A stretch of DNA of 64,000 bases, taken from contig JALOTL010000005.1 of NCBI GenBank assembly GCA_025457915.1, forward strand, positions 132,852 to 196,851. Direction: 5' to 3'. Shown here one piece after another: positions 2,958 to 55,101 of this stretch. The notes beneath the pieces were generated by a model, which was not told the DNA's origin, did not search any database, and saw only the letters and a list, made by a program, of their open reading frames with translations. The stretch is from Spirochaetota bacterium. Lineage in GTDB: Bacteria > Spirochaetota > UBA4802 > UBA5550. The translations under genes were made by a program, and so were the position numbers. Numbering within the stretch: position 1 is the stretch's first letter; each line of letters opens with the position of its first letter.

Positions 2958-3812
2958 ATGAAATCTAGAAATTTGGTATGGATAGTATGCACTTCACTGG
3001 TTGTCCTTTTTGGATTGTCCCAGATGACGGGCGCGCAGGAAAAGACCGAGCCCAAGAAAGACGACAAGGTTATAAAAGAAGGCATGATGGAGCCGGAGGA
3101 TATTGGCTGGAGGGTTAGGGATTTCAAACCTTATATCCAGGCATTGAGGGACCTTGAAAAACTCAACAAGGAATATTCGGATAACCTTTTAAAGCTGGCA
3201 ATAGATGAATACTCGACCGGTATCGACATACTCGAGGACATGGAAAATGATGTATTGAAGGCGATGACCGCCAACAAGAGCAAGAAATTTCTCAATGAAA
3301 GGTTTTACTGGCAGGAGATCGACAGGAAAAACCAGGAGGTCAGGCAGGTATGGATGAAGAAGCAGGAGGCCAAAATGAAGTCCGTCACATACTTGACCAA
3401 GGCCATCAATTATCTCGACCAGATACAGAATATTGAGGTCAAACAGGAGCCTAAATTCATAAATTTTCAGACGAGGCTTTTCCAGGTATATGTTTCCACG
3501 CAGTACGACCTCCAGAATTTCAAGCCGTGCATTCCCATTCTGGAAAGGTATGTCACACTCAGCGACAAGAGCAAGAAAGACATGTGGGCGTACAAGTACA
3601 TGTCAAGCTGTTATGGCTACATGGAGAAGGTCCTCGCCAAGTACAGGCACGCGAACGAGGATGTGATCAACGATTTCAGGAACAAAAAGAACAGCTCCAT
3701 GCTGACAGCCGTTGAGATAAAGTACGGAATCGAATCTCCGCAGTACAAACATCTCCAGGAGATAGTGGAGCTGGATGAAAAGAGAGCGGAAAGGATCAAT
3801 GATTACAAGTAA
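2958..3812 (+). CDS. Secreted hypothetical protein (signal peptide), Lys/Glu-rich
   Basis: 284 aa. N-terminal hydrophobic signal MKSRNLVWIVCTSLVVLFGLSQMTGAQE. RBS-like AAGGGGA upstream. No recognisable domain. Confidence 0.55.
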   Translation: MKSRNLVWIVCTSLVVLFGLSQMTGAQEKTEPKKDDKVIKEGMMEPEDIGWRVRDFKPYIQALRDLEKLNKEYSDNLLKLAIDEYSTGIDILEDMENDVLKAMTANKSKKFLNERFYWQEIDRKNQEVRQVWMKKQEAKMKSVTYLTKAINYLDQIQNIEVKQEPKFINFQTRLFQVYVSTQYDLQNFKPCIPILERYVTLSDKSKKDMWAYKYMSSCYGYMEKVLAKYRHANEDVINDFRNKKNSSMLTAVEIKYGIESPQYKHLQEIVELDEKRAERINDYK

Positions 3813-3835
3813 TCCCTGAGAAGATGATATAATGA

Positions 3836-3866
3836 AAAAGCCCGGCAAAACCGGGCTTTTTTTATT
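3836..3866. terminator. Bidirectional rho-independent terminator between convergent genes
   Basis: aaaaaGCCCGGcaaaaCCGGGCttttttt: 6-bp GC stem, 5-nt loop, flanked by an A-run and a T-run. Confidence 0.6.
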
Positions 3867-3867
3867 G

Positions 3868-4704
3868 TCATGGTTTCCCCGATTTTTTTCTGGCCTTCCT
3901 GTATTCCGAGTCCATTATCATATGTGCGATCCCGGGAAGGTATCGTGTTATTCTCCACAAGAGGCCGGCTTGACCCGGCAGTATATAAAATTTTTTCCGT
4001 GCAATGCCCGCCAGGAGTTTTTTGGCTACTTTTTCCGAGGGGAGCAGGCCGCCGCCCTCGGACATTATGGAAAGCTCTTCAGGCTTCGTCTTGTTTTCAT
4101 TTTCAAAGCCCGGGGTATCGGTGTCGGGCGGATACAATACTGAAAATTCTATATTGTATGGTTTCAGCTCGTGCCTGAGGGATTCGGACAGTCCCACGAT
4201 GGCGAATTTTGTCGGTGTATAGGTCGAATATCCCATAAGACCCATGTATCCTGAAACCGACGAGCAATTTACTATGTAACCGCCTCCTTTTTTCATGAAG
4301 TACGGCAGCAGGACAAGAATGGGCGCGAGCTGGCCGTAATAGTTAATATCCATGTTTTTTTTAAAGTCTTCCATATGCAGATTTTCAATATATTGCGGGT
4401 ATGCATATCCGACGCAATTTATAAGAAAATCAGGCACCCCGTGTTTTTTTATGTATTTTTGAAGAAGCGGTTTCAGCTTGTTTATGCTGGATGTATCGCA
4501 GGATATCAAATCGACGGTCTGGGTATGTTTCAGCCTGTGATCATTGATCTCCTCCATGGCGTTTTTTAATGTTTTTTTATCCCTGGCTATGATGCACACG
4601 CTGCCGCCATTTTTTATTATTTCAATAGCGACTGCTTTTCCTATGCCCCTTGAGCCGCCGCAGACGATTGCCATTTTTCCATTGAACGTCTTTTTTAAGT
4701 TCAT
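3868..4704 (-). CDS. 3-ketodihydrosphingosine reductase-like short-chain dehydrogenase (KDSR family SDR)
   Basis: 278 aa. Rossmann motif CGGSRGIGKAV; YxxxK catalytic region. The KPYNIEFSVLYPPDTDTPGFENENKTKP block matches the KDSR signature YPPDTDTPGF almost exactly. Confidence 0.8.
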   Translation of the reverse strand: MNLKKTFNGKMAIVCGGSRGIGKAVAIEIIKNGGSVCIIARDKKTLKNAMEEINDHRLKHTQTVDLISCDTSSINKLKPLLQKYIKKHGVPDFLINCVGYAYPQYIENLHMEDFKKNMDINYYGQLAPILVLLPYFMKKGGGYIVNCSSVSGYMGLMGYSTYTPTKFAIVGLSESLRHELKPYNIEFSVLYPPDTDTPGFENENKTKPEELSIMSEGGGLLPSEKVAKKLLAGIARKKFYILPGQAGLLWRITRYLPGIAHMIMDSEYRKARKKSGKP

Positions 4705-5198
4705 ATCCAGACCTCGATTTTTATGAAAATTTATTTATAATCCGGGGTTTTATTATTATGATGCATTCCCTTGTGTAATCCAAACCCAATTTAAAGCGGA
4801 ATGTGATAATATTTTTAATCTCACAGCAGATATGCAATTTATTTTTTTTGTCAATATAATTTGACAATTTATTGATGTTTTTTAAAATACAATTTTAACG
4901 ATTCGGCATGTTGTTTAATTTTTTATGTTGCATAAATGATACATAGTATAAATTTTGTAGTCTATTTTTGTAAAAATAAAAAAACGGCAGCGAAAAAATT
5001 TTTTACCCTGATATCACAGGAGTTACGAATCATAAAAAATATTTTTGGTATGATAATTGCATAATATAACTGAAATCAGGAGCCTGGCTCTGTTTTGAAC
5101 TTTTCTTATTTTATTTTGGCTTGTTTTTTTCAAGCCGTTAATTTAATCCGTATGTTTTTTAATGGTATTATACAAATTTTAACAAAGGGTTTAAAAAA

Positions 5199-7046
5199 AT
5201 GAATTCAATTTTAATCGACAGCAAACTTGCTCACCAGAAAAATACCGTGGCTTATACCCTCAAGGCAAAAACTCTGGTTGAATCCCTGGAAAGCCGTCTT
5301 GAATCGAAACAGGATTTTCTTTATATGATGGACAGCAGGAACAGAGAACATCCTTTACCGGTGCCGGTTATAGTCGAGGAGGCCAGGGCGGTCGCCCAGT
5401 TCCTCATGGCAAGAGGACTCGTGAAGGACGACAAGGTCGTGGTCATGCTTCCGACAAGCGCTGATTTTGTTTATATTTACTTCGGGATACTCATGGCAGG
5501 CGGTATTCCAGTACCGGTAAGCCAGCCAGCGGGAACGAATAATCTTGAAAAATATATTGATAATCTAAAACATATTATCGCGAACAGCGAAGCGAAATTT
5601 TTTATTACCTACACCAAGATCAAGGCCATAATTGCCGGGATGGTTGATTCATCAAGCATAAAGGGAAACTTCCTTTTTACAAGCGACATCTTCGAAAACC
5701 CGGTACCTAAAAGCAGTTACAGGGATTACCCCGAGCTTAAAAGCACCGACACCGCCCTGATACAGTATACATCCGGTACCACCGGCATGCCGAAGGGCGT
5801 GGTATTGACCCATGAAAACCTGATCCATAACATACACGGTATAGGCGTTGCCAGCGGAATGAATGATGATTACGTGGGAATAAGCTGGCTGCCTCTTTAT
5901 CATGACATGGGATTGATAGGCGGTCTGTTCACATGCATGTACTGGGGCCTCAAGCTTGTCCTGATGATGCCCGAAGCCTTTCTGCTGAAGCCGCTGTGGT
6001 GGCTTGAGAACATCACCAAATACAGGGTCACGATAGCAGTGGCCCCGAATTTCGGCTACCATTACTGCGTATCCAGGATTTCAGACGAGGACATCTGCGA
6101 TCTTGACCTGAGTTCATGGCGGATAGCGCTTAACGGGGCGGAACCCATCGACAGGGTCACCCTGATGCGGTTCATCGATAAATTCAGATCAAGCGGCCTC
6201 AGAGACGATATTTTCATGCCGGTATACGGGATGGCTGAAAACAGCCTCGCGGCGACATTTCCCGCGATGGAAAATCCTACTGTCGTAAGAAGGTTTCTTC
6301 GCGACGCGCTCGAAGAAGAGCACGTGGCTATTGATACGGACAGCGACGACATAAGGGTGTACGTGGATCTGGCGGCAGTGGGATACCCGCTACTGGGACA
6401 GGAAGTGAGGATCGTCGATGAACACGGCAACACCAGGAAGGAGAGGGAAGTTGGACAGATACTCGTGAAGAGCCCGAGCCTGACTAAAGGATATTACAAA
6501 AACGAAAAGGCTACGCAGGATGCCATAAGGGACGGCTGGCTGTATACGGGCGACATGGGTTTTATAATCGATGAAATGCTTTTCATCTCGGGAAGAATGA
6601 AGGAATTGATAATCAAAAGGGGCAAGAATATATATCCCTATGACGTTGAAAGGATAGCGCAGACGGTGAAGGGAGTGAGGCTCGGGTGCTGTGCGGCTTT
6701 TGCCGTGCCTAACCAGAACCAGGGTACGGAAGACCTCGTGATGGTCTGTGAAAGCCTTTATGAGGACAGGGCGGACCTCGAGGAGCTTGAGAGGAACATC
6801 AGCAGGGAAATAGTCGCGAGACTAGGCATCAGTCCTGATGCGATACTCCTGGTTCCGAAGGGGACTATTCCGAAAACATCCAGCGGGAAGATACAGAGGG
6901 TCCTTTGCAGGAGGAATTACATTGAGGGCAGGCTCATACAGAGCAGGAAATGGAATACAGTGATCCTTTTAAAGACCATCATAATGAGCTACCTTCAGCT
7001 TTTCCGTTTAAAGATAGGCAGACTGATCAATGTTTACGAAAACTGA
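5199..7046 (+). CDS. Fatty acyl-AMP ligase / acyl-ACP synthetase (adenylate-forming enzyme)
   Basis: 615 aa. AMP-binding core YTSGTTGMPKGV; YGMAEN and GDMG motifs; FAAL-like length. Confidence 0.85.
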   Translation: MNSILIDSKLAHQKNTVAYTLKAKTLVESLESRLESKQDFLYMMDSRNREHPLPVPVIVEEARAVAQFLMARGLVKDDKVVVMLPTSADFVYIYFGILMAGGIPVPVSQPAGTNNLEKYIDNLKHIIANSEAKFFITYTKIKAIIAGMVDSSSIKGNFLFTSDIFENPVPKSSYRDYPELKSTDTALIQYTSGTTGMPKGVVLTHENLIHNIHGIGVASGMNDDYVGISWLPLYHDMGLIGGLFTCMYWGLKLVLMMPEAFLLKPLWWLENITKYRVTIAVAPNFGYHYCVSRISDEDICDLDLSSWRIALNGAEPIDRVTLMRFIDKFRSSGLRDDIFMPVYGMAENSLAATFPAMENPTVVRRFLRDALEEEHVAIDTDSDDIRVYVDLAAVGYPLLGQEVRIVDEHGNTRKEREVGQILVKSPSLTKGYYKNEKATQDAIRDGWLYTGDMGFIIDEMLFISGRMKELIIKRGKNIYPYDVERIAQTVKGVRLGCCAAFAVPNQNQGTEDLVMVCESLYEDRADLEELERNISREIVARLGISPDAILLVPKGTIPKTSSGKIQRVLCRRNYIEGRLIQSRKWNTVILLKTIIMSYLQLFRLKIGRLINVYEN

Positions 7047-7066
7047 GCGATACTGAGGGATTATTA

Positions 7067-7318
7067 ATGGCGGATTTCAGGGAAAAGATACAGAATGAAC
7101 TTTTTAAAATCATAGCCAGGCTTGCCGGCACTTCGCCGGACAAGCTCAAGCCTGAAACAAATCTCAGGGACGATCTGGGTTTCGACAGTCTTAAGAGCAT
7201 GGAAGCGATATCCAGGATAACGGAACTTTATGATATAGAACCCGATCTTGACGAGATCGCGGACATCAAGATTTTGAAGGATATCATCGATTATCTCGAA
7301 AAAAAACTTTCCAGCTAG
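7067..7318 (+). CDS. Acyl carrier protein (dedicated ACP)
   Basis: About 83 aa from the ATG at 7067 with a GAGGGA RBS. Phosphopantetheine attachment motif LGFDSLKSME. The 6950 track start overlaps the FAAL gene and is rejected. Confidence 0.8.
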   Translation: MADFREKIQNELFKIIARLAGTSPDKLKPETNLRDDLGFDSLKSMEAISRITELYDIEPDLDEIADIKILKDIIDYLEKKLSS

Positions 7319-7412
7319 AAATCGGCCGCAAAAACGATCCCGTCGCCTTTTTACCGGCAATCAACAGGCGTAGGCGCGGTTCGATTAAAACAATTCATCG
7401 TGGGATAGAAAA

Positions 7413-8603
7413 ATGGCTTTAATCAATGAAACCATAAAAAAACAGTCGGAACTCGTAACGCTTCTGAAAAAGGAGAACATATACACCTACAGTCTCGAGG
7501 TGGGCTCCGCCTGCGAGAACCATATAACAGTAAACGGCAAGGAATGCATCAATTTCATATCCAACAATTACCTGGGGTTCTCAACGCATCCGGCCGTGCT
7601 GGAGGCCGTATCCACCGCGCTCCAGAAATACGGTCTCGGGATCGGCGGCTCTCCACTGGCCTGCGGAACGACCGAGATCCACTACAGGCTGATGAACAGG
7701 ATAGCCTCCGTCTACGGACAGGAGTCGTGCGTACTGTACGCAAGCGGATACCAGGCAATGCTCGGCTCGGTCCAGACGGCCCTGGGCAAGGGCGACGTTG
7801 CCGTTCTCGACGCGCTCGTCCACAGGAGCATTCTTGACGGGGTGATTCTTTCCGGATGCGACACGAGGATGTGGCTCCATAACGACATCGAGGACCTGGG
7901 ATCCCTTCTTGACAGGCTCAAGAAAAAATACCGCAGGATGCTCATCATGGTCGATTCGGTTTACAGCATGGACGGCGACTGGGCCAATCTCCCCGAGCTT
8001 TACAGGCTGAAAAAGGAGCACGGAGCGCTGATTATGATCGACGAGGCGCACAGCCTCGGAGTCCTGGGCAAGACGGGACGCGGGCTCCCGGAGCATTTCG
8101 ATATGCCGAATGCCCCGGACATCATTTCCGGTACGTTTTCAAAATTCGCCGGCGCGATAGGAGGATTCGTGGCCGGACCGTATGAATTCATCGATTACAT
8201 GAAGCATACTGCGTCGCCTTATGTTTTTTCGGCATCGCTCTCTCCACTTATCTGCGCGGGGGTTCTCAAATCTTTCGACCTTCTCGATGAGGAACCTGAA
8301 TGGCGTCAGAGGCTTTGGGAGAACATCAAGTTTTTTCTTTCCGGCCTCGCCGGCCTTGGATTCGATACGGGGCCTTCGAAAACCGCGGTTGTTCCGCTGA
8401 TAATAAGGGACACGATCAAGACGATGCTCTTTAACAGGAAGATATTTGAAATGGGGGTCTATGCCTCACCGATAGTCCACCCGGCGGTGCCGCCGGCAGA
8501 ATCCAGGATAAGACTGGGGGTCATGGCCACACACACGCGGGAGGATCTTGAAAAAACCCTTGACGTTTTTGCGAAGGTGGGAAAGGATCTCGGCATCATT
8601 TAG
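7413..8603 (+). CDS. Serine palmitoyltransferase-like alpha-oxoamine synthase (PLP-dependent acyltransferase)
   Basis: 396 aa, AONS/KBL/SPT family. PLP-lysine motif SGTFSKFAGAIGGF; DEAHS motif; GS-rich glycine loop. Confidence 0.85.
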   Translation: MALINETIKKQSELVTLLKKENIYTYSLEVGSACENHITVNGKECINFISNNYLGFSTHPAVLEAVSTALQKYGLGIGGSPLACGTTEIHYRLMNRIASVYGQESCVLYASGYQAMLGSVQTALGKGDVAVLDALVHRSILDGVILSGCDTRMWLHNDIEDLGSLLDRLKKKYRRMLIMVDSVYSMDGDWANLPELYRLKKEHGALIMIDEAHSLGVLGKTGRGLPEHFDMPNAPDIISGTFSKFAGAIGGFVAGPYEFIDYMKHTASPYVFSASLSPLICAGVLKSFDLLDEEPEWRQRLWENIKFFLSGLAGLGFDTGPSKTAVVPLIIRDTIKTMLFNRKIFEMGVYASPIVHPAVPPAESRIRLGVMATHTREDLEKTLDVFAKVGKDLGII

Positions 8604-8647
8604 CCGTTTTACTTGAATTCCCCCGTCATTTCGGGGTAGATGTCGAG

Positions 8648-10192
8648 ATGTTAAAGCCCCTCATTGTTTTGATCATAATCGTATTTTCCCTGCCATGCGC
8701 GGCGGAACCCTTCAGCCCCTGCGGAAGCGACAAGAGCTATCCGGACAGGGGGGTCGGTTTTTACATTGATAAAACCGCTTCCATTAAAATAGAAGAAGCC
8801 CGCAAACAGGTTTATCTACCCCTTAAGTGCGGATTTCTGAAATTCGGCCATACTCCGCATGTGGTCTGGATTAGGATGGAGATCCTTAAAAACTGCCCCG
8901 ATGGGGTCCTTCTTGAGGTTCCAAAACCCATAATTGAAAGCGTCAGTCTCTACAGGATCGATAAGGGAAGGCTTGCATATGAAAGGAACGATGTAGGCGA
9001 TGCCCACCCTTTTTCAAACAGGGAGGTTGATCACAGGAGGATAATATTCAACCTGGCTGACGGGCCTTACGTCATGGAATATTTCCTGAGAATAGAAGCC
9101 GAAACCTATATCAATTTTCCATTGATTTTCTGGTCAAAAAAAGCCTTCGAACACGACGAGATTATCCAGCTTGCCCTGATCTGGATATATGTCGGGCTCA
9201 TGTCGATACTGGCCCTGTACAATATCCTCAGTTATATAACAATAAGGGACAGGGAACATCTGTTCATATTTTTCCTTACTGCCGGTTATGCCCTTCAGAT
9301 GATCGCATGGCAGGGCATAGGGCTGCAGCTGATATGGCCGGAGACTACCGGGTGGACCCACATCCTTCATACGACAATGGCTTCCTACCTTGGAATCATT
9401 CTGCTCTACCTTTCAAAATATTATCTCGACATCAGGAAGTTTTTTTCGCCTTTATCCGTTCTTTTTAATTTCACTGCTGCAGTCGTGGTCTTGAACGTGG
9501 CCGCGGTGTTCTTTTTTTCCTCAACCCTGCTCTATGATTTCATGCATGTCGTGACATTTACAACAGCCGTAGTGATCACGGTTTATTCGCTTATAAAAGC
9601 GCTTAATGGGGCAAGGCACTTGTGGTATTTCCTTACTTCAATATTCGTGTTTCTTGCCGGATACAGCATTTATCTTTCCTATGTCTGGGGTATGATAAAC
9701 GTGCCGCTTATCGAGCAGACCCTGATACCCCTTATGTCGATTATACAGGTTGTTCTGCTGTCTTACGGCCTCACGAGCAAGCTCGGAGTCATGATAAGGG
9801 ACATCGAAAGGTTTTCAAGAAAGCAGAAACTGTCCCGTTCTGATGCCTTGGCGTCGCCCGCCGAGGAAAAGATAAAGAAGGCCATTGAATACATCAACTC
9901 GAACTACAGGTCTGAGATTTCCCGCGAAGGTCTTGCGGCTGAATGCGATATGAATACGGATTATTTCAGCAGGCTTTTTAAAATCTACACCGGAAAAAAG
10001 ATCAGCGATTACATAAACGAGCTCAGGGTCATTGAGGCCGCGGGAATGCTTCGCGAATCCGGGGAGAACATACTTAACATTGCCTACAATGTGGGTTTCG
10101 AAAACCTGAGGACTTTCAACAGGGCCTTTCTCAAGGTTATGAACGTAACCCCTTCCGATTACAGGACCGCAAAAAGCGCCGATAGTATATGA
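8648..10192 (+). CDS. 7TMR-DISM sensor (periplasmic DISMED2 + 7TM) fused to a C-terminal AraC-type HTH domain
   Basis: 514 aa. Signal peptide; about 170-aa periplasmic region; seven hydrophobic helices; C-terminal AraC signature (INELRVIEAAGML...NIAYNVGFENLRTFNRAF). Confidence 0.7.
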   Translation: MLKPLIVLIIIVFSLPCAAEPFSPCGSDKSYPDRGVGFYIDKTASIKIEEARKQVYLPLKCGFLKFGHTPHVVWIRMEILKNCPDGVLLEVPKPIIESVSLYRIDKGRLAYERNDVGDAHPFSNREVDHRRIIFNLADGPYVMEYFLRIEAETYINFPLIFWSKKAFEHDEIIQLALIWIYVGLMSILALYNILSYITIRDREHLFIFFLTAGYALQMIAWQGIGLQLIWPETTGWTHILHTTMASYLGIILLYLSKYYLDIRKFFSPLSVLFNFTAAVVVLNVAAVFFFSSTLLYDFMHVVTFTTAVVITVYSLIKALNGARHLWYFLTSIFVFLAGYSIYLSYVWGMINVPLIEQTLIPLMSIIQVVLLSYGLTSKLGVMIRDIERFSRKQKLSRSDALASPAEEKIKKAIEYINSNYRSEISREGLAAECDMNTDYFSRLFKIYTGKKISDYINELRVIEAAGMLRESGENILNIAYNVGFENLRTFNRAFLKVMNVTPSDYRTAKSADSI

Positions 10193-10502
10193 CGCAATTT
10201 TTCAATTGCCCATAATTCTGTTTTTTAATCTCGATCAACTTGATGTATTTATTAGATTTTCACACGGGTTTTATATTGGAAAATTTAATTGATAAAAGTG
10301 AACATAATGTATTTTTGTTCATATTGCTTAATATTTCAAACCGGTTTTTTTAATCAAAATCCAATTTTAGTTAAAATTCGCCCTGATCTTCGTGAAACAA
10401 CTACCTTAATAAAGACAATTTCGTAGTATATATGAATTTGTCGAGACAAGACCGTCCGGACGTTTTATTATCAGTCATTCAATTTGCAGTATTGGGGAGG
10501 TA

Positions 10503-11522
10503 TTGGGGATGAAGAGATTTATGGGAATTATTTGCATGCTCTTGATTGTATTAATTTTTACCCTGCCTCTTGTGGCGGGTGGGGACAGCACTCCCTGCAG
10601 GACCAAATATCCAATCGTACTCATCCATGGATTTTTATTCAAATCTGATAATCTGCTGGGCATAGATTACTGGTGGGGGATTCCAGGCGCGCTCAGCAGC
10701 GAGGGGGCGCAGGTATATCAGACAACTTCGAACAGCACTTTCAACCACGCACTGAAAAGGGCCGAATCCGACAGGGCGGAGCTTCTTTACCTGTTCGCCG
10801 CCTGTCCGGAATGGGGTAAATATGAAAAAATAAACATTATCGCGCATTCACAGGGCGCCCAGGACAGCAGGATCCTCATACACGACGGCATTAAAGGCAT
10901 CATTGGTGGAAAGGCCATACAGATCAAGATCGCTTCACTTACCACCATAAGCGGCGTCAACAACGGGAGTCCGGTGGCAGACGCCATTTTCAAGCTTTTA
11001 CCTGAAGGATCTTTCCAGAGACTGCTGGTTTCAGAGGCAATCAACGCCTTCTGCTGGCTGTTCTATTTCGATGATAAAAACGCCGACAGCCTTTCTGCAT
11101 GCAGATCCATGAGCGTCGATTACGTTGTAAACGTGCTCAACAAGAATTATCCCGCCGGCAATCCGGCCGTCAGCCCGTCTGGATATACGTCCACTCCAGT
11201 CAACGGCCCGGTTTATATACAGAGTTATGCGGGCAGGATAAGGAACGCGCTTCTGGCTCCGCTTGATGTCATGATTGCGGTTCCCCTCTGGCTTTTCGTA
11301 AAGTCAGTCCCCGAGAGCCTTATGGGAGGGGAGAATGACTGTCTCGTCGGCGTAAATGCCGCAAAATGGGGCAGGTACAGGGAAACGCTTGAAGGCCCGG
11401 CATGGGGCGGGGGGGTCACGCACTTCAACGAGATAGGGCATTTTTTCGGCATAACACCGTGGTTCAACGCGCCCCAGTTTTACGTAAAGGTGGTGCGGGA
11501 ACTTAAGACCATGGGCTTTTAA
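10503..11522 (+). CDS. Secreted triacylglycerol lipase (alpha/beta hydrolase, family I-like)
   Basis: 339 aa. Signal peptide; PIVLIHGF oxyanion region; nucleophile pentapeptide AHSQG. Confidence 0.75.
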   Translation: MGMKRFMGIICMLLIVLIFTLPLVAGGDSTPCRTKYPIVLIHGFLFKSDNLLGIDYWWGIPGALSSEGAQVYQTTSNSTFNHALKRAESDRAELLYLFAACPEWGKYEKINIIAHSQGAQDSRILIHDGIKGIIGGKAIQIKIASLTTISGVNNGSPVADAIFKLLPEGSFQRLLVSEAINAFCWLFYFDDKNADSLSACRSMSVDYVVNVLNKNYPAGNPAVSPSGYTSTPVNGPVYIQSYAGRIRNALLAPLDVMIAVPLWLFVKSVPESLMGGENDCLVGVNAAKWGRYRETLEGPAWGGGVTHFNEIGHFFGITPWFNAPQFYVKVVRELKTMGF

Positions 11523-11569
11523 TTCATAACTTTAGAGATATATAGAGGGGGAAATATACAGAAAACAAT

Positions 11570-11604
11570 GCCCTGCCGTAAATAAACGGCAGGGCTATTT
11601 TTTT
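11570..11604. terminator. Rho-independent terminator (bidirectional)
   Basis: GCCCTGCCG-taaataaa-CGGCAGGGC followed by tattttttt. Confidence 0.6.
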
Positions 11605-11654
11605 AAAACCGGTCTTTTATAATTTTTTTGAAACTGGAACCCGCGATTGGTTTT

Positions 11655-12353
11655 TCATTCCGGCCTGAAACTGTTTTTAACCCATGTATATTTAAAAAGG
11701 GTGATTTCTTCAGAACTGTTGCTATGCCCCGGATCGACAATAAGTTTTACCGTGTTTTCTTTCGGCGATAATTTATAAACCACCGGATAGGTGTCGCCGC
11801 AGAATTGCCTGTTCATTTTTTTCAGGTATTCCTTTTTTATCCTGTCCTGCGGGACCTCCCCGATCATGTTTTTGGAGATGTCTTTCCATGTTTTTCCGTT
11901 AAGTTCATAGAAGGCGAGGTTTGTCGAGCACAGCCTGCCGCATTCAGACGGTCCGCAATTGGTGTTAAAGACGGCTATAATGTCCCCGCCGCCGGTTTTT
12001 TTGAAAACCTTGATTTCCGCGTAGCTTTCAAGAAATCCTGCATCATCGGTCAGAAAATTTTCCAGCCTTAGATAACCGTTTTCCGTATCTTTTATTCTGA
12101 CGGCTTTCATCCTGCTTTCCTGGACGGACGTGAATTCGTGCGGCTTTTTATATATCGATTTGAAAAAGTCCCGGGGCATCAGCAGGTAATAATCCATTAC
12201 GTCTTTCTGCTTTTTGTCAAAGAGGGCGGTATCGGGTTTGTAGGATGATTCCTGGGCAAAAAGAGCTATACCGGTCTGATCGGCCGGGTAATAACCGACC
12301 GAGAACAGTAAGGAAAAAAATAATGCCGCTGCGATGCAGGATGATTTTTTCAT
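11655..12353 (-). CDS. Secreted hypothetical protein
   Basis: 232 aa. N-terminal signal MKKSSCIAAALFFSLLFSVG. No recognisable domain. Confidence 0.5.
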   Translation of the reverse strand: MKKSSCIAAALFFSLLFSVGYYPADQTGIALFAQESSYKPDTALFDKKQKDVMDYYLLMPRDFFKSIYKKPHEFTSVQESRMKAVRIKDTENGYLRLENFLTDDAGFLESYAEIKVFKKTGGGDIIAVFNTNCGPSECGRLCSTNLAFYELNGKTWKDISKNMIGEVPQDRIKKEYLKKMNRQFCGDTYPVVYKLSPKENTVKLIVDPGHSNSSEEITLFKYTWVKNSFRPE

Positions 12354-12432
12354 ATCGACCCCCGGGTATTTTGTTTCGGGATATTATACCGGTGTAGACG
12401 GAAAAATCAATGAAATTTAAATACGGCGATGA

Positions 12433-12855
12433 TCAGCTTTCAATGTCTATGGAGGCCCCGGACATGGCGTTTACGGGACACGCAACCTTGCATAGCCCGC
12501 AGGCCACGCATTTTTCCGGATAGAAATTGACTTCCATCGTGCTCCTGTCGATGAAAAGCGCGTCAACCCTGCAGACCGAAGTGCAGGCCCCGCAGTGGAC
12601 GCACCTGTCGTCGTCCCTGTATATCCTGTCCGCAAGCACCTCGATGGTCACGCCCTCGTTCTTCAGGTATATTATGCTTTTTTCGATATCATCATCCGAG
12701 CCCCTCAGCTCAAGGATTATTCTTCCCTCCAGCTTGGGGAATATTTTGGCCTCGAGCACATTGAATATTACATCAAAATCCTTCGCCAGCCTGAATATTA
12801 TCGGTTTATACATGATGTTCTTGTTGAAGATAAGAAGGATGTTTTTCGATTTCAT
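12433..12855 (-). CDS. NIL-domain / 2x[4Fe-4S] ferredoxin (MA1822-like homocysteine-biosynthesis partner)
   Basis: 140 aa. N-terminal NIL-like beta-alpha domain, then two CxxCxxCxxxCP motifs (CVHCGACTSVC, CVACGLCKVACP). Start overlaps the stop of the upstream gene. Confidence 0.7.
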   Translation of the reverse strand: MKSKNILLIFNKNIMYKPIIFRLAKDFDVIFNVLEAKIFPKLEGRIILELRGSDDDIEKSIIYLKNEGVTIEVLADRIYRDDDRCVHCGACTSVCRVDALFIDRSTMEVNFYPEKCVACGLCKVACPVNAMSGASIDIES

Positions 12856-13598
12856 TCACGGGCTCCTTTTTTTAAATCAATCAGTTCAACGTTCCCCTGA
12901 ACGGCCATCCTGTCCCTGCATATGACGATTGCGCCGTCCGCGCCGTTTTTCATCGCGAAGGCAACCGCTTCCTCTGCCATCTCCTCGGATTTTACAAGGT
13001 TGCACGCCGCGGTGGCAAGGGCGTCGGCGAAGGCCGCGTCTTCCGCGATTATCACGGCCGCATCAGCCCTTCCGAAGCTGAAGGAGTGGCCGAGTTTTCC
13101 TGAAGAAGTGCAGATCCCGCAGGGGGTTTTGTCCGGAGTGATTTTAATTCCGATCATATCCTTGAATGAGAACTCGCCGCTGTAGACGCAGACGACCGCG
13201 GGATCGGCAAGCCTCATCCATATGTCCCCGCCGTTTTCTATAATCATCTCCGGGGTTTCATCAAGCAGCGATTCGCCCAGCGCCCTTGCGATAGCTCCCG
13301 CGACCGAGGCCATCGGTCCGACTCCCGCTCTCTCGGAGGCTTCATACATCATGCCGACGACCACGGGATATTCAGCGGTCCTTTCGACCGGGTCGAACGA
13401 TGTCAGAAATGAAGGCTGGATTTTGATATGCCTCCTGATGGATTTCCTCAATTCACAGAGTATCGCCGCCGCCCTTTCGGCCACTTCGCATCCGGACCTG
13501 ATATACAGGTCGCTTGTTTCGATTTTCACCCTGAAGGTTTTCCACCTCGCGGTATCCTCGAAATCCCGGTAAAGTCTTTCCCTGTATCTGGCGTTCAT
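12852..13598 (-). CDS. COG2122 / UPF0280 (ApbE-like, MA1715-like) protein
   Basis: 248 aa. Recognised as the UPF0280 family that co-occurs with COG1900. Translationally coupled (ATGA overlaps) on both sides. Confidence 0.6.
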   Translation of the reverse strand: MNARYRERLYRDFEDTARWKTFRVKIETSDLYIRSGCEVAERAAAILCELRKSIRRHIKIQPSFLTSFDPVERTAEYPVVVGMMYEASERAGVGPMASVAGAIARALGESLLDETPEMIIENGGDIWMRLADPAVVCVYSGEFSFKDMIGIKITPDKTPCGICTSSGKLGHSFSFGRADAAVIIAEDAAFADALATAACNLVKSEEMAEEAVAFAMKNGADGAIVICRDRMAVQGNVELIDLKKGARE

Positions 13599-14773
13599 TT
13601 TTTTAACGGTACAGTCGGGAACTGAATCTGCGGTTCTCCTATTGTGAAGCCGTTTACTATCCAGTCCTTTATCGCCGCGGCGATTTTTTTTGCCATCGGA
13701 TAACTGGACAGCGGAGCGGTCTGAACCGTCCTTCCCATTAATTCAAATTTTCCGGATTTAAGCTCTGCGTAGCTGACTTCGCCGAGCCTCCTGGGTTCCC
13801 CGTTCGGATAGTCGCTGCCGTAATCTATGACCTGGCAGAAGATGTCCCTGTCGGACTGACCGGTAAAATACGCCATTTCCTCGTTGATTATCGGTACCGG
13901 TATGCCGAGTCCGACCATGAGCGAACAGCCGTATCCGGCGATTGAAGCGCCCCTGATGTATTCATGGCTCATCTCCTTCAGGTTGCCGGTGACGGCGATC
14001 GTGCCGGAGCCCTCCCTGGGTATCCCGTTATCGCCCCTCGTTGAATCTGGCGAATGCTGTGTTCCCTGCCAGGAAACCGCGCCGACGGCTCCGCCGAGAA
14101 AGATCTTGGTCCCGACGCCGATGGTCCAGTAATACGGGTCGTTGAGGAGCGGGCTTAGCATTCCGGCCGAGGAATATGTGGCATTTCCCATTTCGGGCCT
14201 CAATATGCCCATGTAGGTGTATATGGTTTTCTGCGACATGTTCACGGCGCAGTTATAGTTCTGGTATGAATTCCTGGGATTGTATAAAAAGGCGTCCCTG
14301 AGGTCCTTCATGGTTATTGTCTTATCGAATTCCTTCAGGGGATAGCAATCGGTTCCGTATGAAGTCGCGTATAGCTTTACCTCCCTGCCGGATATCAGGT
14401 CTTCAATCACGTGTCCTCCCCCGTATGTGAATTTTCCCGGATGGACCATGTTGAGGGGATCGTTTTCCCTTACCTGGGTGGCTCCGATATAGCAATCCAC
14501 TGCGGCGATGCCCGCATAGGCCTCGACGTCATTAAGCCATACCCTTGATGCCTTCATTTTGGGCCTTGTATGACCGAAATTGATAAAGGCGCCGGATGAG
14601 CACATTATTCCGAAGGTGCCTGTCGTGACTACGTCCACCTTTTTAAAAGCGTTTTTGACGCCCTCGTCCGATACAATTTTAGGCATTTCGTCCGCTGTAA
14701 CGACAACGGCCCTGCCGTCTTTTATTTTCCTGTTTATTTCATCGTAGCTTTTTTTTATTTCGAAATCGGACAT
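13595..14773 (-). CDS. COG1900/DUF39 sulfide-dependent homocysteine biosynthesis enzyme (MA1821-like)
   Basis: Track ORF extends to 14857. Preferred start is Met at 14773 (MSDFEIKK...) with a GGGGTGG RBS. Pattern VVVTADEM...TTGTFG...GGGHVIEDL typical of the DUF39 family. Confidence 0.75.
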   Translation of the reverse strand: MSDFEIKKSYDEINRKIKDGRAVVVTADEMPKIVSDEGVKNAFKKVDVVTTGTFGIMCSSGAFINFGHTRPKMKASRVWLNDVEAYAGIAAVDCYIGATQVRENDPLNMVHPGKFTYGGGHVIEDLISGREVKLYATSYGTDCYPLKEFDKTITMKDLRDAFLYNPRNSYQNYNCAVNMSQKTIYTYMGILRPEMGNATYSSAGMLSPLLNDPYYWTIGVGTKIFLGGAVGAVSWQGTQHSPDSTRGDNGIPREGSGTIAVTGNLKEMSHEYIRGASIAGYGCSLMVGLGIPVPIINEEMAYFTGQSDRDIFCQVIDYGSDYPNGEPRRLGEVSYAELKSGKFELMGRTVQTAPLSSYPMAKKIAAAIKDWIVNGFTIGEPQIQFPTVPLKK

Positions 14774-15120
14774 GTTTAACCACCCCGGCTTTAAATCAGA
14801 AGACAGGTATAATCCCATCACGGATATATTCAAACATTTTTTTAATAAAGCGAGCATGTAAAAATCTTATTTTATAAGGAGTAAATAATAATCCTCACGC
14901 GCCGTTTTATACCGGATAAAAGGCCCGAAATGGACGCCGTCAGTGTATATTGATCTCAGCCTGATATAACCCCCGCCGGGTCTTGCGGGATAATTTTTGT
15001 TTTGTTCATCTTGAAAAGCTTTAAAGACTGATGATTGAGCCGATGATTCGCATGCATTATTTATTTATTGACTAATCGCGCGGTTTTTATATAAGGGGAA
15101 CCTGAATAATTATTTTATTA

Positions 15121-50742: not shown

Positions 50743-53700
50743 ATGAACGCTTCAGTCGAAAAAGAAGCCGGGAGGGATTTCAATGATCTGCTCCTGCCTC
50801 TCGGCGATAGAATCGGCGCTCTTCAGAAGGCTAATAATCTGATCGCCGAATTGAACCACCCGAATATCGACTGGAAGTATGCCGTCGACGGAATCCGCTC
50901 CTACCTTTTCGATTTTTTCCATGACATCGAACCCTACTCTGACAGGGTGATTCCCATACTTCTGCATTTCCTTGAAGATGCCACGGCCCGGGGCAGGTCT
51001 TCCTCCCTGCGCGCTTGCGATACTTATCTGGACAGGTACTCCTTCGTCCTCAGGGAGACGGGTTTTCCGAATCTCGGCCTGGCTTTCAGCGCCCATTTTC
51101 CCGGTTATCTCGACCTGCTTACGGCCGAGTCCGGCAAGGGCCTTTATTTGAGCGGGGTGAACGGGAGGCTGATGGATACAGGATCCCTCTACGAACGCTC
51201 GGGATTGTCCGGGAGGGACGAATACGGCAAACTGGTATCCCTGCTGATATCGCAGTATGAACTTTATATCGGAAGATCGATAATTACGACGGAAAGCGAA
51301 CTGCGGGAACTCGGTGGAACGCCGGAACTGACGGGCCTGCTGTCGGACGTTTCCGCCGAATCATATTCCGGAAGGCTCAGGGAGATCAGGGCGCTCGCGG
51401 ATGCAGGGCGGGGAGATTTTTTCGCCGCGGCCTCGGGGCTGGTTGATTTTTCGCACAATGCGAGGTGCTGGGAAAGGGCCTGCGCGTATGTGAGGAAGGC
51501 CTTCGAAGAAGGAAATATATCAGGAGACCCGGTGATCATGGGGATACTCTCGTACCTCGTTAGGAAGTCGAACGAGGGCGGCGACAGGGACCTCCAGATG
51601 CACATATCCAGGACGGCAGCTGCCGCCTGCTCGATATTCTCCTCCAATACCGACGTTCTCAGGGGTATAATTGACCTGGTAATGCCCGCGCTTCTCGCGG
51701 AAATAGACAGGGGCGGGAATTATTTTTCCGCGTTTTCCACCATATACAACATCGGCAAGACCGTGGTCGGTTCCGGCAAGAAAACGATAATCGACTATTT
51801 CGTAGACTTTCTCGTGAAGTCTAAGTTCTGCTTCCCGGAGTTTTCCGGGATCGCCCAGGACTGGTCCGTGATAGTGAACTCGAGCCACCTGGAAAACATC
51901 AGGACATGGATGAAGCTCATCGAGCTCAACCCGACGCTCATGAAGAGGCTGGCGTCCAGCCTCATAGTCAACCTGAAGCTCGGCGGCGTTTTCCTGAAGG
52001 ACACCGACGTTTTCCAGAGGGACGTGTCGAGGCTCCTGAACAGCGATTACTCTGACGTCTTCTACCTGGTGATATCGCTTGCCGCTGTTTTTCCGGCCTT
52101 CTATCACGACATCGGGGCCACCGGCGACATCAGGTCCTACACCGAAAGGATAGACACGAACCATAAAATGGACGACCTGATCCATTTCCTGCGCAAGCAG
52201 GTGCACGTCGAGTCCTCGAGCAGGACAGTCTACCTTTTCCAGCGGGTGATGGAATTCTGGCTGACCGGCGACAGCGGCCTGCTGGAGGGAATGGTGCCGC
52301 AGGAGGTCTTCGAAAGGCTCGACGGTTTTTTTGAAATGATGAATCTCGACTCGGACCCGGCCGCCCGCGCCGTCCTCGACGGCGCCAGGAGCGTTTTCGA
52401 AGAACTCTCCGGGCTGAGTTTCTGGGATTTCCTGGACAGGGTCGACGGCGGCGCCTTCCTGGAAGCGGCCCGGCGCCTGGAGCCGGCCGGCATAGGTCCC
52501 GGCGAAAAGGAAAGGGCGCTGCGGCATTTCGCCGGGTACTTCGAATCGCGGAACCCGGCGGAGATGACCAAGATGCTGGCCTGCATGAAAAACAGGTTCG
52601 GCATCGACGCGTCAGGCAGGGATATGTGGAAGCGCCTTTACGAGATACCGGACGACGAGTTCAGGGGCCTTTTCGAGGACGTAAAGGGCGAAGAGTTTTC
52701 CAGGGTCAACGTTGAAAAATTCATCACCTTCCTGCACGTGTACAGGATGCTCTTCGACAAGTATAATTTCTCCGAGGTGAGGGGCGTCGAGAAGCTTGAA
52801 TCATACGCCGCGGAAAACCTCTTCGAACCGGGCGCGGGTTTTTTCGAAGCCCTGAGGAAGGGCGGCGCGTTCGAATCCCTCGACGCGCTCCTGTCGCTAC
52901 AGGACTCGCTGAAGTCCGGCGTGCTGCTGGGCGGGAAGACCTTCGAGCCGCTCGATACCATCGAGTTCAAGAGGCACATAGCGTTCGGCATCCCTTCCAT
53001 GTACGGTTCATACAAGGAGAAAAAGTTCGACACCCTCAAGGTTTTTTTTCACACCAACCTGATAATCGTGGGCCTTTTCGAGAGGTCATACGCCTCGCTC
53101 GGCATCATGAAGGGCGGCCCGGTGGATTACGCCGAGACCGCCGGGTTCATCCGGCTGTTTTTCAGGAAGTTCCTGATCGACGGGCTCATGAACCAGGAAA
53201 TGGTCACGGTCATAAGCCTGCTGGAGACGCCGAACCTCAGGATTTCCCAGTTCAGGGACATCGTCAACCACCTGCTCGGAATACACGGGGAGATATCCGA
53301 CAGGTTCAACGAGACCTTCAAGGACGTCTGCCGCGAGGCCATAAAAAACATAGGCATCGAAAGGATTTCCAGGAGGTTCCTGCCCGACGAAAGCGAGAGC
53401 AGCGTCGACGTGGTCGTCGACAGGTTCCTCAGGGACCAGATAATGCAGACGCCCCTCCTCCAGCTTTTCGACAACCTGCTGATAAGGCTCAAGGAGCGCC
53501 TCGCGACCGAGCTGGCGATGAGGGGGGACGGCGTCTGTCTCAACCCGGTTTCAGGTCCCCCGGCAAGGGGCGGGATAGCCTTCCGGATAGGAAAGACCCC
53601 GGCCGCGGGGGTTGCCGCGCCGGTGTGGGAGACAGGCGGGAAGGCGTACGGGCTCCTCTTTGCGTCCGAAATAGAAGGCATCAGGATCCCGGAGGGTTTC

Positions 53701-55101
53701 ATACTTTCATCAGGGCTTTACAAGAGGGTAAAGGACGGCAACCTGAAGAACCCAAGGTTCAGGGAGCGCATGATGGGGCTCCTCAGGAAGGAGATCCCGC
53801 TTTTTACCGGCAACAGGTTCGGCAACATGGACAATCCGGTCCTTCTCTCGGTCAGGAGCGGCGCGGTGTTCTCCATGCCCGGCGTGATGGACACCATAAC
53901 GAACGTTGGGATAACGAAGGACATAATCGATTTCTACGCGGAGAGGGACCCGTGGTTCGCGTATGACTGCTACAGGAGGCTGATCCAGGACCTGGCAATT
54001 TCATCCTACGGGATGGACAGATCGATTTTCGAGAAGCTCATGAGCCAGGCCAAGGAAGAGGCGGGCGTCGCACTCAAGGAGGAGCTGACCTCCGGCCAGA
54101 TGGAGATACTGACAAGGAAGTACCGCTACGCCATAAACTCCCACGGTTTCTCCGTGCCGGAGGACCCGTACGAACAGCTCTTCGAGGCGATACTGTCCGT
54201 GTACAGGTCATGGGAATCGCCTATCGCCAGGAATTTCAGGGATTTCGTCAACATATCCGGCGAGTGGGGGACTGCGGTCATAGTCCAGAGGATGATATTC
54301 GGAAATTACTCTCCTTCCGACATAACCGGGGTCGTATACAGCCAGAACCTCGGCAACGAAAACATCGGCCTCTTCGGAGAATACAAGACCAGGGCCCAGG
54401 GGCACGACATAGTAAGCGGCGTCGCCAGGGTGTTCCCGGTCAGCGAGGAGCAGAAGAGGGTCTACGCCAAATCCAGGGCGTTTCCGTCCATGGAGAAGAA
54501 TTTTCCCGGCCTTTATTCGGCGCTTTACGACGCCGTCAGGAGGATAAGGGAGGGGTGGAGGAACGACGTGGAGATCGAGTTCACGATTGAAAACAACAAT
54601 CTCTACATACTCCAGATCAGGGGAATGACCAGGCACACCTTCGAAATAGAGGAGCTGGAATCAAACAGGGACGAGCTTCATTACTGCCTGCTCGGGCAGG
54701 GCCTCGCCGCCTCGGGCGGAGTGGTGTCCGGCAGGGCCGTCTTCGGCATCGGGAGGATAGATTTCTTCAGGGAAAGGTTCAGGGACGAAAAGATCGTGCT
54801 GGTGAGGCCCGAGACCACGCCGGAGGAGGTCATCGGCATCAAGAAGTCGGACGGCATTCTTACCTGCGTCGGCGGCATGACGTCGCACGCCGTTTTACAG
54901 ATGAGGCGGTTCGAGAAGTCCGGCGTGAGCGATTTTTCCGCGATGAAGATAGACGAATCAAGGAACAGCGCCACGGTCAGGAAGGAGTTTTTCGAAAAAG
55001 ACCACGTGGTGATCAACGAGGGGGACTACATAACCATAGACGGGAATACCGGGAACGTATATCTCGGATATCATAAGACGAAAAAAAAGATTACCCAATA
55101 A
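50743..55101 (+). CDS. Giant multidomain protein: unknown ~850-aa N-terminal region + PPDK-like ATP-grasp nucleotide-binding domain + PEP-utilising phosphohistidine swivel domain (no PEP/pyruvate TIM barrel)
   Basis: 1452 aa. C-terminal about 570 aa align by eye to PPDK residues about 1-530 (GGKAYGL...PEGFILSS, NPVLLSVRSGAVFSMPGVMDTITNVGI, FAYDCYRRLIQ, LLGQGLAASGGVVSGRAVF, GILTCVGGMTSHAVL with catalytic His). Ends after the swivel domain. Confidence 0.7.
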   Translation: MNASVEKEAGRDFNDLLLPLGDRIGALQKANNLIAELNHPNIDWKYAVDGIRSYLFDFFHDIEPYSDRVIPILLHFLEDATARGRSSSLRACDTYLDRYSFVLRETGFPNLGLAFSAHFPGYLDLLTAESGKGLYLSGVNGRLMDTGSLYERSGLSGRDEYGKLVSLLISQYELYIGRSIITTESELRELGGTPELTGLLSDVSAESYSGRLREIRALADAGRGDFFAAASGLVDFSHNARCWERACAYVRKAFEEGNISGDPVIMGILSYLVRKSNEGGDRDLQMHISRTAAAACSIFSSNTDVLRGIIDLVMPALLAEIDRGGNYFSAFSTIYNIGKTVVGSGKKTIIDYFVDFLVKSKFCFPEFSGIAQDWSVIVNSSHLENIRTWMKLIELNPTLMKRLASSLIVNLKLGGVFLKDTDVFQRDVSRLLNSDYSDVFYLVISLAAVFPAFYHDIGATGDIRSYTERIDTNHKMDDLIHFLRKQVHVESSSRTVYLFQRVMEFWLTGDSGLLEGMVPQEVFERLDGFFEMMNLDSDPAARAVLDGARSVFEELSGLSFWDFLDRVDGGAFLEAARRLEPAGIGPGEKERALRHFAGYFESRNPAEMTKMLACMKNRFGIDASGRDMWKRLYEIPDDEFRGLFEDVKGEEFSRVNVEKFITFLHVYRMLFDKYNFSEVRGVEKLESYAAENLFEPGAGFFEALRKGGAFESLDALLSLQDSLKSGVLLGGKTFEPLDTIEFKRHIAFGIPSMYGSYKEKKFDTLKVFFHTNLIIVGLFERSYASLGIMKGGPVDYAETAGFIRLFFRKFLIDGLMNQEMVTVISLLETPNLRISQFRDIVNHLLGIHGEISDRFNETFKDVCREAIKNIGIERISRRFLPDESESSVDVVVDRFLRDQIMQTPLLQLFDNLLIRLKERLATELAMRGDGVCLNPVSGPPARGGIAFRIGKTPAAGVAAPVWETGGKAYGLLFASEIEGIRIPEGFILSSGLYKRVKDGNLKNPRFRERMMGLLRKEIPLFTGNRFGNMDNPVLLSVRSGAVFSMPGVMDTITNVGITKDIIDFYAERDPWFAYDCYRRLIQDLAISSYGMDRSIFEKLMSQAKEEAGVALKEELTSGQMEILTRKYRYAINSHGFSVPEDPYEQLFEAILSVYRSWESPIARNFRDFVNISGEWGTAVIVQRMIFGNYSPSDITGVVYSQNLGNENIGLFGEYKTRAQGHDIVSGVARVFPVSEEQKRVYAKSRAFPSMEKNFPGLYSALYDAVRRIREGWRNDVEIEFTIENNNLYILQIRGMTRHTFEIEELESNRDELHYCLLGQGLAASGGVVSGRAVFGIGRIDFFRERFRDEKIVLVRPETTPEEVIGIKKSDGILTCVGGMTSHAVLQMRRFEKSGVSDFSAMKIDESRNSATVRKEFFEKDHVVINEGDYITIDGNTGNVYLGYHKTKKKITQ

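Follow-up and report, generated by a model that had tools for sequence, protein, structure and literature searches.

The 64,000-nucleotide stretch of spirochaete DNA analysed here (contig JALOTL010000005.1; ‘the window’ throughout) carries, between positions 3868 and 8603, four genes that we think are probably an operon, with its divergent partner, for the synthesis of a sphingoid-type long-chain base; chromosomal, vertically conserved, and belonging to an uncultured Leptospirales-like spirochaete. Working from left to right, they encode a short-chain dehydrogenase/reductase (SDR; 3868–4704, minus strand, 278 amino acids), which is transcribed divergently from the other three; a fatty acyl-AMP ligase (FAAL; 5199–7046, plus strand, 615 amino acids); a dedicated acyl carrier protein (ACP; 7067–7318, plus strand, 83 amino acids); and a pyridoxal phosphate-dependent alpha-oxoamine synthase (AOS; 7413–8603, plus strand, 396 amino acids). 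All four had been listed with these coordinates in a preliminary description of the DNA and were found again here, as they are in JGI's own gene calls for this sequence; the Pfam E-values given below far exceed what chance would produce, and each of the motifs quoted in that description could be located in the corresponding translation.

The SDR (PF00106, E 1.3e-40) shares 40% identity over 232 amino acids with human KDSR (NP_002026.1; E 8e-59). Its best match in the PDB is the fungal 3-ketodihydrosphingosine reductase TSC10 (100.8 bits), followed by a 604-residue (3R)-hydroxyacyl-CoA dehydrogenase (97.1 bits), with other single-domain SDRs scoring 77.5 bits or less; no NCBIfam SDR model reached its cutoff, and the JGI label for the protein is 3-dehydrosphinganine reductase. 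The Rossmann motif (GGSRGIG, aa 16–22) and the catalytic Ser (within NCSS, aa 146–149), Tyr and Lys (Tyr-x3-Lys as YTPTK, aa 162–166) align with their counterparts in the human enzyme, and the segments KPYN (aa 181–184) and YPPDTDTPGF (aa 191–200) form part of a KPYN...YPPDTDTPGF..EN.TKP block common to both proteins. The resemblance to the eukaryotic enzymes (KDSR/FVT1 and TSC10) thus extends over the YPPDTDTPGF...TKP block, the Rossmann motif and the Tyr-x3-Lys pair; human KDSR, however, has an N-terminal signal/anchor and C-terminal membrane segments that are missing from the SDR, the alignment spanning human residues 32–263 only, and the SDR gene, unlike those of the eukaryotic proteins, adjoins bacterial-type genes for an Spt-like synthase, an ACP and a FAAL. 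The ‘KDSR-like’ assignment of the preliminary description is therefore borne out on alignment. We class the protein as a classical SDR of the KDSR subfamily, with reduction of 3-ketodihydrosphingosine, or a similar 3-keto long-chain base, as its predicted activity.

Two further observations concern this protein. Its C-terminus (3868–3990) forms a basic, amphipathic tail. Homologues that are 57–61% identical to it occur in metagenome-assembled genomes (MAGs) of Lokiarchaeota and Promethearchaeota (Asgard; P0146, P0184, P0196, P0197, P0213, P0214 and P0217), one Asgard homologue being 34% identical to human KDSR. At the Asgard locus L095 (SDR homologue at 10001–10855) the context holds no AOS or ACP, the adjoining genes encoding another SDR and an NAD kinase (not a lipid kinase).

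The FAAL (PF00501, E 2.6e-67) is AasR-like, and is proposed to adenylate free fatty acids and load them onto the dedicated ACP. Its top NCBIfam model is the fatty acyl-AMP ligase NF006624 (431 bits, under the 600-bit cutoff), FAALs and loading domains of the FAAL type (7r7g, 3kxw, 3pbk) head its PDB matches, and acyl-CoA ligases score far below FAALs in both comparisons. The motif YTSGTTGMPKGV is found at aa 190–201, and identity to the AasR of E. coli BL21 amounts to 32% over 561 amino acids (E 1e-94). A hydrophobic or amphipathic extension of approximately 35 residues (6940–7046) lies beyond the AasR-aligned region; either this extension or the basic tail of the SDR could mediate membrane association.

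The ACP (PF00550, E 2.3e-11) carries the phosphopantetheine-site motif GFDSLKSME at aa 38–46, including the serine of its DSL, falls under all of the NCBIfam cutoffs for housekeeping ACPs, and shows a weak but significant match to the AcpR of E. coli BL21 (27% identity, E 5e-8). Its gene ends 94 bp before that of the AOS. An ACP gene lies upstream of the AOS in all of the loci inspected for the AOS clade described below, mostly adjacent to it; in Myxococcota two genes intervene (L006/L007:6803–11194, L009, L010), encoding a B12-binding radical-SAM enzyme and a protein of the acyl-CoA dehydrogenase family, and in Acidobacteriota (L090:1583–11191) several radical-SAM genes flank the FAAL–ACP–AOS set. 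Such neighbours suggest that, in these two phyla, the ACP-bound acyl chain may be modified (methylated or desaturated) before condensation.

The AOS (PF00155, E 5.6e-53) has the lysine motif SGTFSKFAG at aa 239–247, with Lys244, and FSAS at aa 272–275. As a single sequence its best PDB match is the serine palmitoyltransferase (SPT) of S. multivorum, at 303 bits, with CqsA at 99; a profile built from its clade returns the same S. multivorum SPT at 431 bits, ahead of Thermus BioF/KBL (370), KBL (351–363), alphaproteobacterial SPT (about 320), CapB (293) and CqsA (160), and so favours SPT by 61 bits over the next family. In pairwise comparison it is 36% identical to the Spt of E. coli BL21 (E 2e-73). 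The clade itself consists of proteins 49–74% identical to the AOS with an invariant AGTFSKFAG, found in Spirochaetota, Desulfobacterales, Myxococcota, Acidobacteriota and others; in a scan of genome contigs, the clade members among the loci listed were L008–L010, most of the others being ALAS, KBL or TIGR01825 proteins.

The AOS shares Ser80, Phe242 (in GTFSK), Ala274 (in FSAS) and Arg332 with SPTs; the KBL counterparts of the two motifs are GTLGK and FSNS. Asn52 and Gly80–Ser81 of the S. multivorum enzyme contact the carboxylate or the hydroxyl of serine through water (PMC10196870), and their equivalents are kept here as Asn51, Gly79 and Ser80. In SulA, an active-site lysine (Lys281') takes the place of the SPT alanine (PMC9304779). 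The AOS and 14 of 16 clade members have alanine at this position (Ala274), and a cysteate-using enzyme of the SulA/CapB type is for this reason unlikely. Of the head groups that the preliminary description had left open (serine, cysteate or another amino acid), cysteate now appears unlikely on the evidence of this one residue. We regard the protein, on sequence, as an Spt-like enzyme of its own, previously unnamed subfamily, with a long-chain acyl-ACP donor implied by the gene context and L-serine as the likely amino-acid substrate.

Spirochaete relatives whose AOS is 71–72% identical to this one have a conserved order of genes, HPPK–DnaC-like–FcpA–SDR(−)–FAAL–ACP–AOS–[slot]–NIL/Fer4–AbpE–HcyBio, which is kept at the loci L002, L089 and L096 (the last on a 4.8 Mb contig). 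The variable element is the slot after the AOS. In L002 (11276–12403) and L096 (10001–11131) it is filled by a gene of the bCerS family, encoding a 376-residue protein, likewise found directly after the AOS in L003, that is alignable over its full length with E. coli YghO (30% identity over 375 amino acids, E 7e-64); an AlphaFold model of it (pLDDT 85) has a tandem-GNAT fold that, on comparison with the PDB, resembles amine N-acetyltransferases. Homologues also lie near clade AOS genes in Myxococcota (35%) and Acidobacteriota (30%). The yghO gene (ECD_02850) is listed alongside CC_1154 as an acyl-CoA N-acyltransferase required for dihydroceramide (PMC9386255), from which we take the equivalence of the two, and CC_1154/CCNA_01212 is the ceramide synthase, CerS or bCerS (PMC11324152, PMC10865984). 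In L089 the slot is empty (11197–11216).

In the window, the slot (8648–12353) holds other genes. The first, starting 45 bp past the AOS on the same strand, encodes a membrane sensor of the 7TMR-DISM type that also carries, by fusion, the DNA-binding domain of AraC (8648–10192, plus strand, 514 amino acids; PF07696, PF07695 and PF12833); the second a predicted secreted class-2 lipase (10503–11522, plus strand, 339 amino acids; PF01674, E 1.6e-5) with a hydrophobic, signal-like N-terminus; and the third, on the minus strand, a 232-residue hypothetical protein. Neither the sensor nor the lipase gene is present at the equivalent position in L002, L089 or L096. A link of the sensor to the pathway is uncertain, and one of the lipase speculative. 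A hairpin resembling a bidirectional terminator lies at 11570–11595.

The position of the sensor raises the question of whether the product of the AOS and SDR might instead be a diffusible signal, an alpha-hydroxyketone or amino-ketone in the manner of CqsA/LqsA with its dehydrogenase, and the 7TMR-DISM/AraC protein its receptor. In CqsA-type systems the AOS does have a sensor of its own, and here a sensor-regulator gene starts 45 bp past the AOS on the same strand. The scores run the other way, however: CqsA is the weakest PDB match among the named AOS families, at 99 and 160 bits (single sequence and profile) against 303 and 431 for SPT, so that the comparison with CqsA called for in the preliminary description did not refute its reading, and the CqsA model NF005526 gives the AOS only 184 bits against a cutoff of 428. 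The sensor, moreover, is missing from this position in L002, L089 and L096, a bCerS-family acyltransferase fills the slot in relatives, and the AasR-like FAAL with its own ACP, like the reductase of KDSR type, fits a lipid pathway. We consider the signalling explanation very improbable.

Several results weigh against the reading of the locus as a pathway to a sphingoid-type base. The top NCBIfam model for the AOS, NF047600 (SerpalmtaseCFB), gives 370.8 bits against a cutoff of 640, and the other SPT models are likewise missed (NF047599, 325.2 against 500; NF047603, 241.2 against 670); true Bacteroidales SPTs score 684–703 on the first of these, above its cutoff. KBL-like TIGR01825 proteins reach 392–412 bits on the same model, as high as the AOS or higher, so that a score on this model, taken in absolute terms, does not identify an SPT. 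Among signature columns, the clade fits 2 of the 11 that are specific to SPT (and 3 of the 12 specific to KBL), and Cys84 and Arg365 are KBL-like. In neighbour-joining (NJ) trees with 300 bootstraps, computed with the SPTs of S. multivorum and S. paucimobilis (from PDB alignments), two Bacteroidales SPTs, E. coli Spt, KBL and BioF as references, the clade was monophyletic in all 300 replicates; it joined the CFB SPTs in 143 and all SPTs together in 127, an NJ support of about 42–54% only. The SDR is not adjacent to the AOS in every clade locus, none being found nearby in L008, Desulfobacteraceae or Myxococcota. Finally, tblastn of the window with a bCerS-family protein from one relative returned nothing below E = 4 and with E. 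coli YghO nothing at E < 1e-5, and at the latter threshold the CerR of E. coli BL21 matched neither the window nor any of the loci fetched for comparison. No remnant of a bCerS gene was detected in the slot of the window, and the two empty searches agree with the earlier statement that the window contains no bCerS.

Could the AOS then be a housekeeping KBL or BioF, serving threonine catabolism or biotin synthesis amid unrelated neighbours? The NCBIfam KBL and BioF models score only 11–20 bits under the SPT model, and the automatic JGI names of clade members are ‘glycine C-acetyltransferase’ or ‘8-amino-7-oxononanoate synthase’. Yet the AOS also stays below the cutoffs of these families (KBL, 359.9 against 460; BioF, 350.6 against 426; TIGR01825, 355 against 535), is just 27.5% identical to E. 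coli BioF, and belongs to a clade that grouped with KBL/TIGR01825 in only 3 of the 300 bootstraps. The inspected ORFs (open reading frames) of the window include no threonine dehydrogenase (tdh) and no bioA, bioB or bioD, and the linkage of FAAL and ACP to the clade AOS is kept across four phyla. We find this explanation scarcely credible. With regard to the phylogenetic check proposed in the preliminary description, clustering with KBL/BioF-like proteins was thus confined to those 3 replicates, and grouping with SPTs appeared in about half of them all.

A more substantial alternative keeps the architecture of the pathway but changes its amino acid: the AOS may use another amino acid, such as alanine or glycine, in place of serine, so that a long-chain amino alcohol of the 1-deoxy or some other atypical kind would be formed and not a true sphinganine. 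The same facts that set the enzyme apart from known SPTs would agree with this (its own subfamily under all SPT cutoffs, a fit to 2 of 11 SPT-only columns, and the KBL-like Cys84 together with an RIR at 365–367, near the substrate loop). In addition, 1-deoxyceramides are abundant in anoxic water, where they have been linked to Desulfobacterota and/or Bacteroidota (PMC11334938), and Desulfobacterales possess members of the AOS clade with FAAL and ACP. Set against this are the serine-contacting residues (Asn51, Gly79 and Ser80), which are kept, and the SPT-like Ala274, the latter also standing in place of the SulA-type lysine expected for cysteate. Known SPTs also take alanine and glycine, poorly, such that sequence alone cannot separate the serine from the non-serine case. 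The check on substrate-specifying residues suggested earlier therefore gave a divided answer, SPT-like at the four positions just named and KBL-like at Cys84 and Arg365, with few SPT-only columns matched. Whilst we judge a non-serine substrate unlikely, it is the alternative that we take most seriously, and serine, given the unreached SPT cutoffs, the 2 of 11 columns and the partial NJ support, is no more than our favoured choice.

The region between the SDR and FAAL genes (495 bp) contains a sigma-54-type promoter element, TGGTATGATAATTGCA (−24 GG / −12 GC; 5046–5061, plus strand), whose first base lies 153 nt from the FAAL ATG at 5199. It is the sole match in the window to TGGYAYRNNNNTTGCW (consensus TGGYAYR-N4-TTGCW), with 0.11 expected by chance. 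An equivalent element, in each case the only plus-strand match of its locus, lies upstream of FAAL in L002/L003, L089 and L096 as well as in the Myxococcales locus L010. About 119 bp upstream of the −24/−12 element of the window is an imperfect palindrome, GTTGCATAAATGATAC (block GTTGCATAWATGATAC; 4927–4942, plus strand), again the sole match in the window (0.03 expected by chance), which is kept in all four syntenic spirochaete loci at 114–126 bp from the sigma-54-like element; L010 has the −24/−12 element alone. Genes for RpoN and for an activator of sigma-54 also lie in the window. A promoter of the sigma-54 type, conserved among these loci, thus appears to drive the operon, and the palindrome would be a candidate site for an enhancer-binding protein. 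One good match to a sigma-70 promoter, TTGACA-16-TAAAAT at 4861–4888, is not relied on; promoter-like matches of this kind were only modestly enriched, at 25 against 14.7 expected. A search of 3500–12500 with Rfam (E <= 1) yielded sub-threshold matches to small RNAs only, near a convergent gene end, and none in the 495-bp intergenic region.

Beyond the gene order already described, related MAGs are collinear with the first 23 kb of the window, which places the cluster in the conserved chromosome and not in an island. More broadly, contigs of matching length among the hits to the three proteins indicate that AOS, SDR and bCerS-like genes lie together in many spirochaete MAGs. The DNA is that of a metagenome-assembled Spirochaetota bacterium; an FcpA-like flagellar gene adjoins the cluster and the nearest species-level genome is that of an uncultured Leptospirales bacterium, on which grounds we describe the host as Leptospirales-like. 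The G+C content of the window is uneven, approximately 0.40 at 2–6 kb (a section that runs from the FcpA-like gene through the SDR and the AT-rich intergenic region into the beginning of FAAL) as against 0.55–0.58 at 46–62 kb; for the first 23 kb, the collinearity with related MAGs speaks against a chimera in the assembly. The other ORFs inspected in the window are mainly of a housekeeping nature (Mfd, FliG, RpoN, HprK, PriA, PyrG and a molybdate-type ABC transporter). Next to the cluster, at 12433–14857 on the minus strand, is a trio of NIL/ferredoxin, AbpE-like and HcyBio genes (the last for homocysteine biosynthesis, with sulfur incorporation) that is kept in the spirochaete relatives. Further away, a 1452-residue ORF (50743–55101, plus strand) has its Pfam domains (PPDK_N and PEP-utilising mobile) at the C-terminal end alone, the approximately 1000 N-terminal residues being without a Pfam match.

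The closest known system is the rhodobacterial AasR–AcpR–Spt–CerR–bCerS cluster, as in Caulobacter crescentus and E. coli BL21(DE3) (PMC9386255, PMC11324152). The AasR/AcpR/Spt system was defined experimentally, the E. coli BL21 cluster included (PMC9386255), and in BL21(DE3) the genes run in the order yghO, fatty acyl-AMP ligase (AasR), CerR, ACP (AcpR) and spt. Common to this cluster and the window are a FAAL-type synthetase, a dedicated ACP, which in the window immediately precedes the AOS, and an Spt-like AOS, with significant homology for all three proteins; the relatives of the window add a YghO/bCerS-family acyltransferase beside the AOS. There are also differences: the rhodobacterial reductase is CerR, of the NAD-dependent epimerase family, whereas that of the window is a classical KDSR-type SDR; the AOS is only 32–36% identical to the rhodobacterial SPTs and falls in a subfamily apart from them; bCerS is included there and missing from the window; the window cluster has no adjoining paralogous lptF/lptG genes; and its host is a spirochaete.

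Other systems are more distant. Among characterised AOS enzymes the CFB-type SPT of Bacteroidota (S. multivorum) comes nearest, and CFB SPTs were the sister group that the clade had most often, but the identity is about 38% only, and sphingolipid genes in Bacteroidota, unlike those of the window, are scattered and lack a FAAL and a dedicated ACP. From the same phylum, SulA (of the SulA/CapB group) provides a precedent for acyl-ACP as physiological donor in this class of enzyme (PMC9304779), though its signature lysine is an alanine in the AOS. SgaAB of Pseudomonas fluorescens MYb115 (PMC12134224) likewise delivers a carrier-bound acyl chain to a stand-alone AOS to give sphinganine-type bases outside the classical Spt pathway; SgaA, however, is a polyketide synthase (PKS), whereas the window has no PKS and instead has a FAAL, a free-standing ACP and a separate SDR.

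Taken with these comparisons, the homologies suggest the following scheme; the genes, their homologies, the synteny and the conserved motifs are observed, whereas the chemistry, the substrates and the regulation are inferred from them. By analogy with AasR and AcpR, the FAAL would convert free long-chain fatty acids to acyl-AMP and pass the acyl group to the 83-residue ACP. The AOS, as its homology to Spt and its gene context imply, would then condense the acyl-ACP with a small amino acid (most likely L-serine), with release of CO2, to a 2-amino-3-keto long-chain base. Its 3-keto group would be reduced with NAD(P)H by the KDSR-type SDR, as its 40% identity to human KDSR leads us to infer, to yield a sphinganine-like amino alcohol. 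In the close relatives, the tandem-GNAT enzyme of the bCerS (YghO/CC_1154) family encoded after the AOS would N-acylate this base to a dihydroceramide; in the genome of the window, where the slot holds other genes, the product would be the free base, or else be acylated by an enzyme encoded elsewhere. CerR is periplasmic in the Caulobacter model (PMC11087976). No signal peptide is visible in the sequence of the SDR, and a cytoplasmic KDSR-type enzyme without one suggests that reduction precedes acylation, the order followed in eukaryotes but not in that model.

The locus would, on this evidence, be a variant of the known bacterial ceramide pathway in Spirochaetota, with a KDSR-type reductase replacing CerR. 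The sphingolipid-type pathway put forward in the preliminary description accordingly finds support in the KDSR homology of the SDR, in the AasR–AcpR–Spt homologies, and in the YghO homologue beside the AOS of the relatives. Tentatively, and with rather more doubt than confidence, we would go further and picture a third, mosaic ceramide architecture: an AasR-like FAAL and its ACP, an Spt-like AOS subfamily and a KDSR-orthologous reductase in place of CerR, reducing first, under sigma-54 control in free-living Leptospirales-like spirochaetes; with the bCerS slot given over, in the present genome, to a sensor-regulator and a secreted lipase, scavenged fatty acids may there become free or non-serine (e.g. 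1-deoxy) bases.

As to novelty, metagenomic work has predicted Spt-like genes in 38 phyla, so that their occurrence across many groups is no novelty; the proximity to bCerS seen in the relatives is also the criterion by which the Black Sea study recognised ‘Spt-like’ proteins (PMC11334938). Spirochaetota were not found in the supplements of that paper, and a full-text search of the literature at hand found no paper on such a cluster, or on sphingolipid synthesis, in this phylum.

The bacterial and eukaryotic routes to ceramide have been regarded as a case of convergence, the bacterial reductase (CerR) and acyltransferase (bCerS) being non-homologous to their eukaryotic counterparts. The locus described here, which is conserved in a family of uncultured spirochaetes, places a clear KDSR homologue beside bacterial Spt-like, ACP and FAAL genes, and, in the relatives, beside bCerS as well. 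The SDR may thereby bear on the origin of eukaryotic KDSR, close homologues being present also in the Asgard archaeal MAGs, and the compact set of four to five genes bears on whether a KDSR-first order operates in bacteria, on the amino acid used by the AOS and on the existence of spirochaete sphingolipids.

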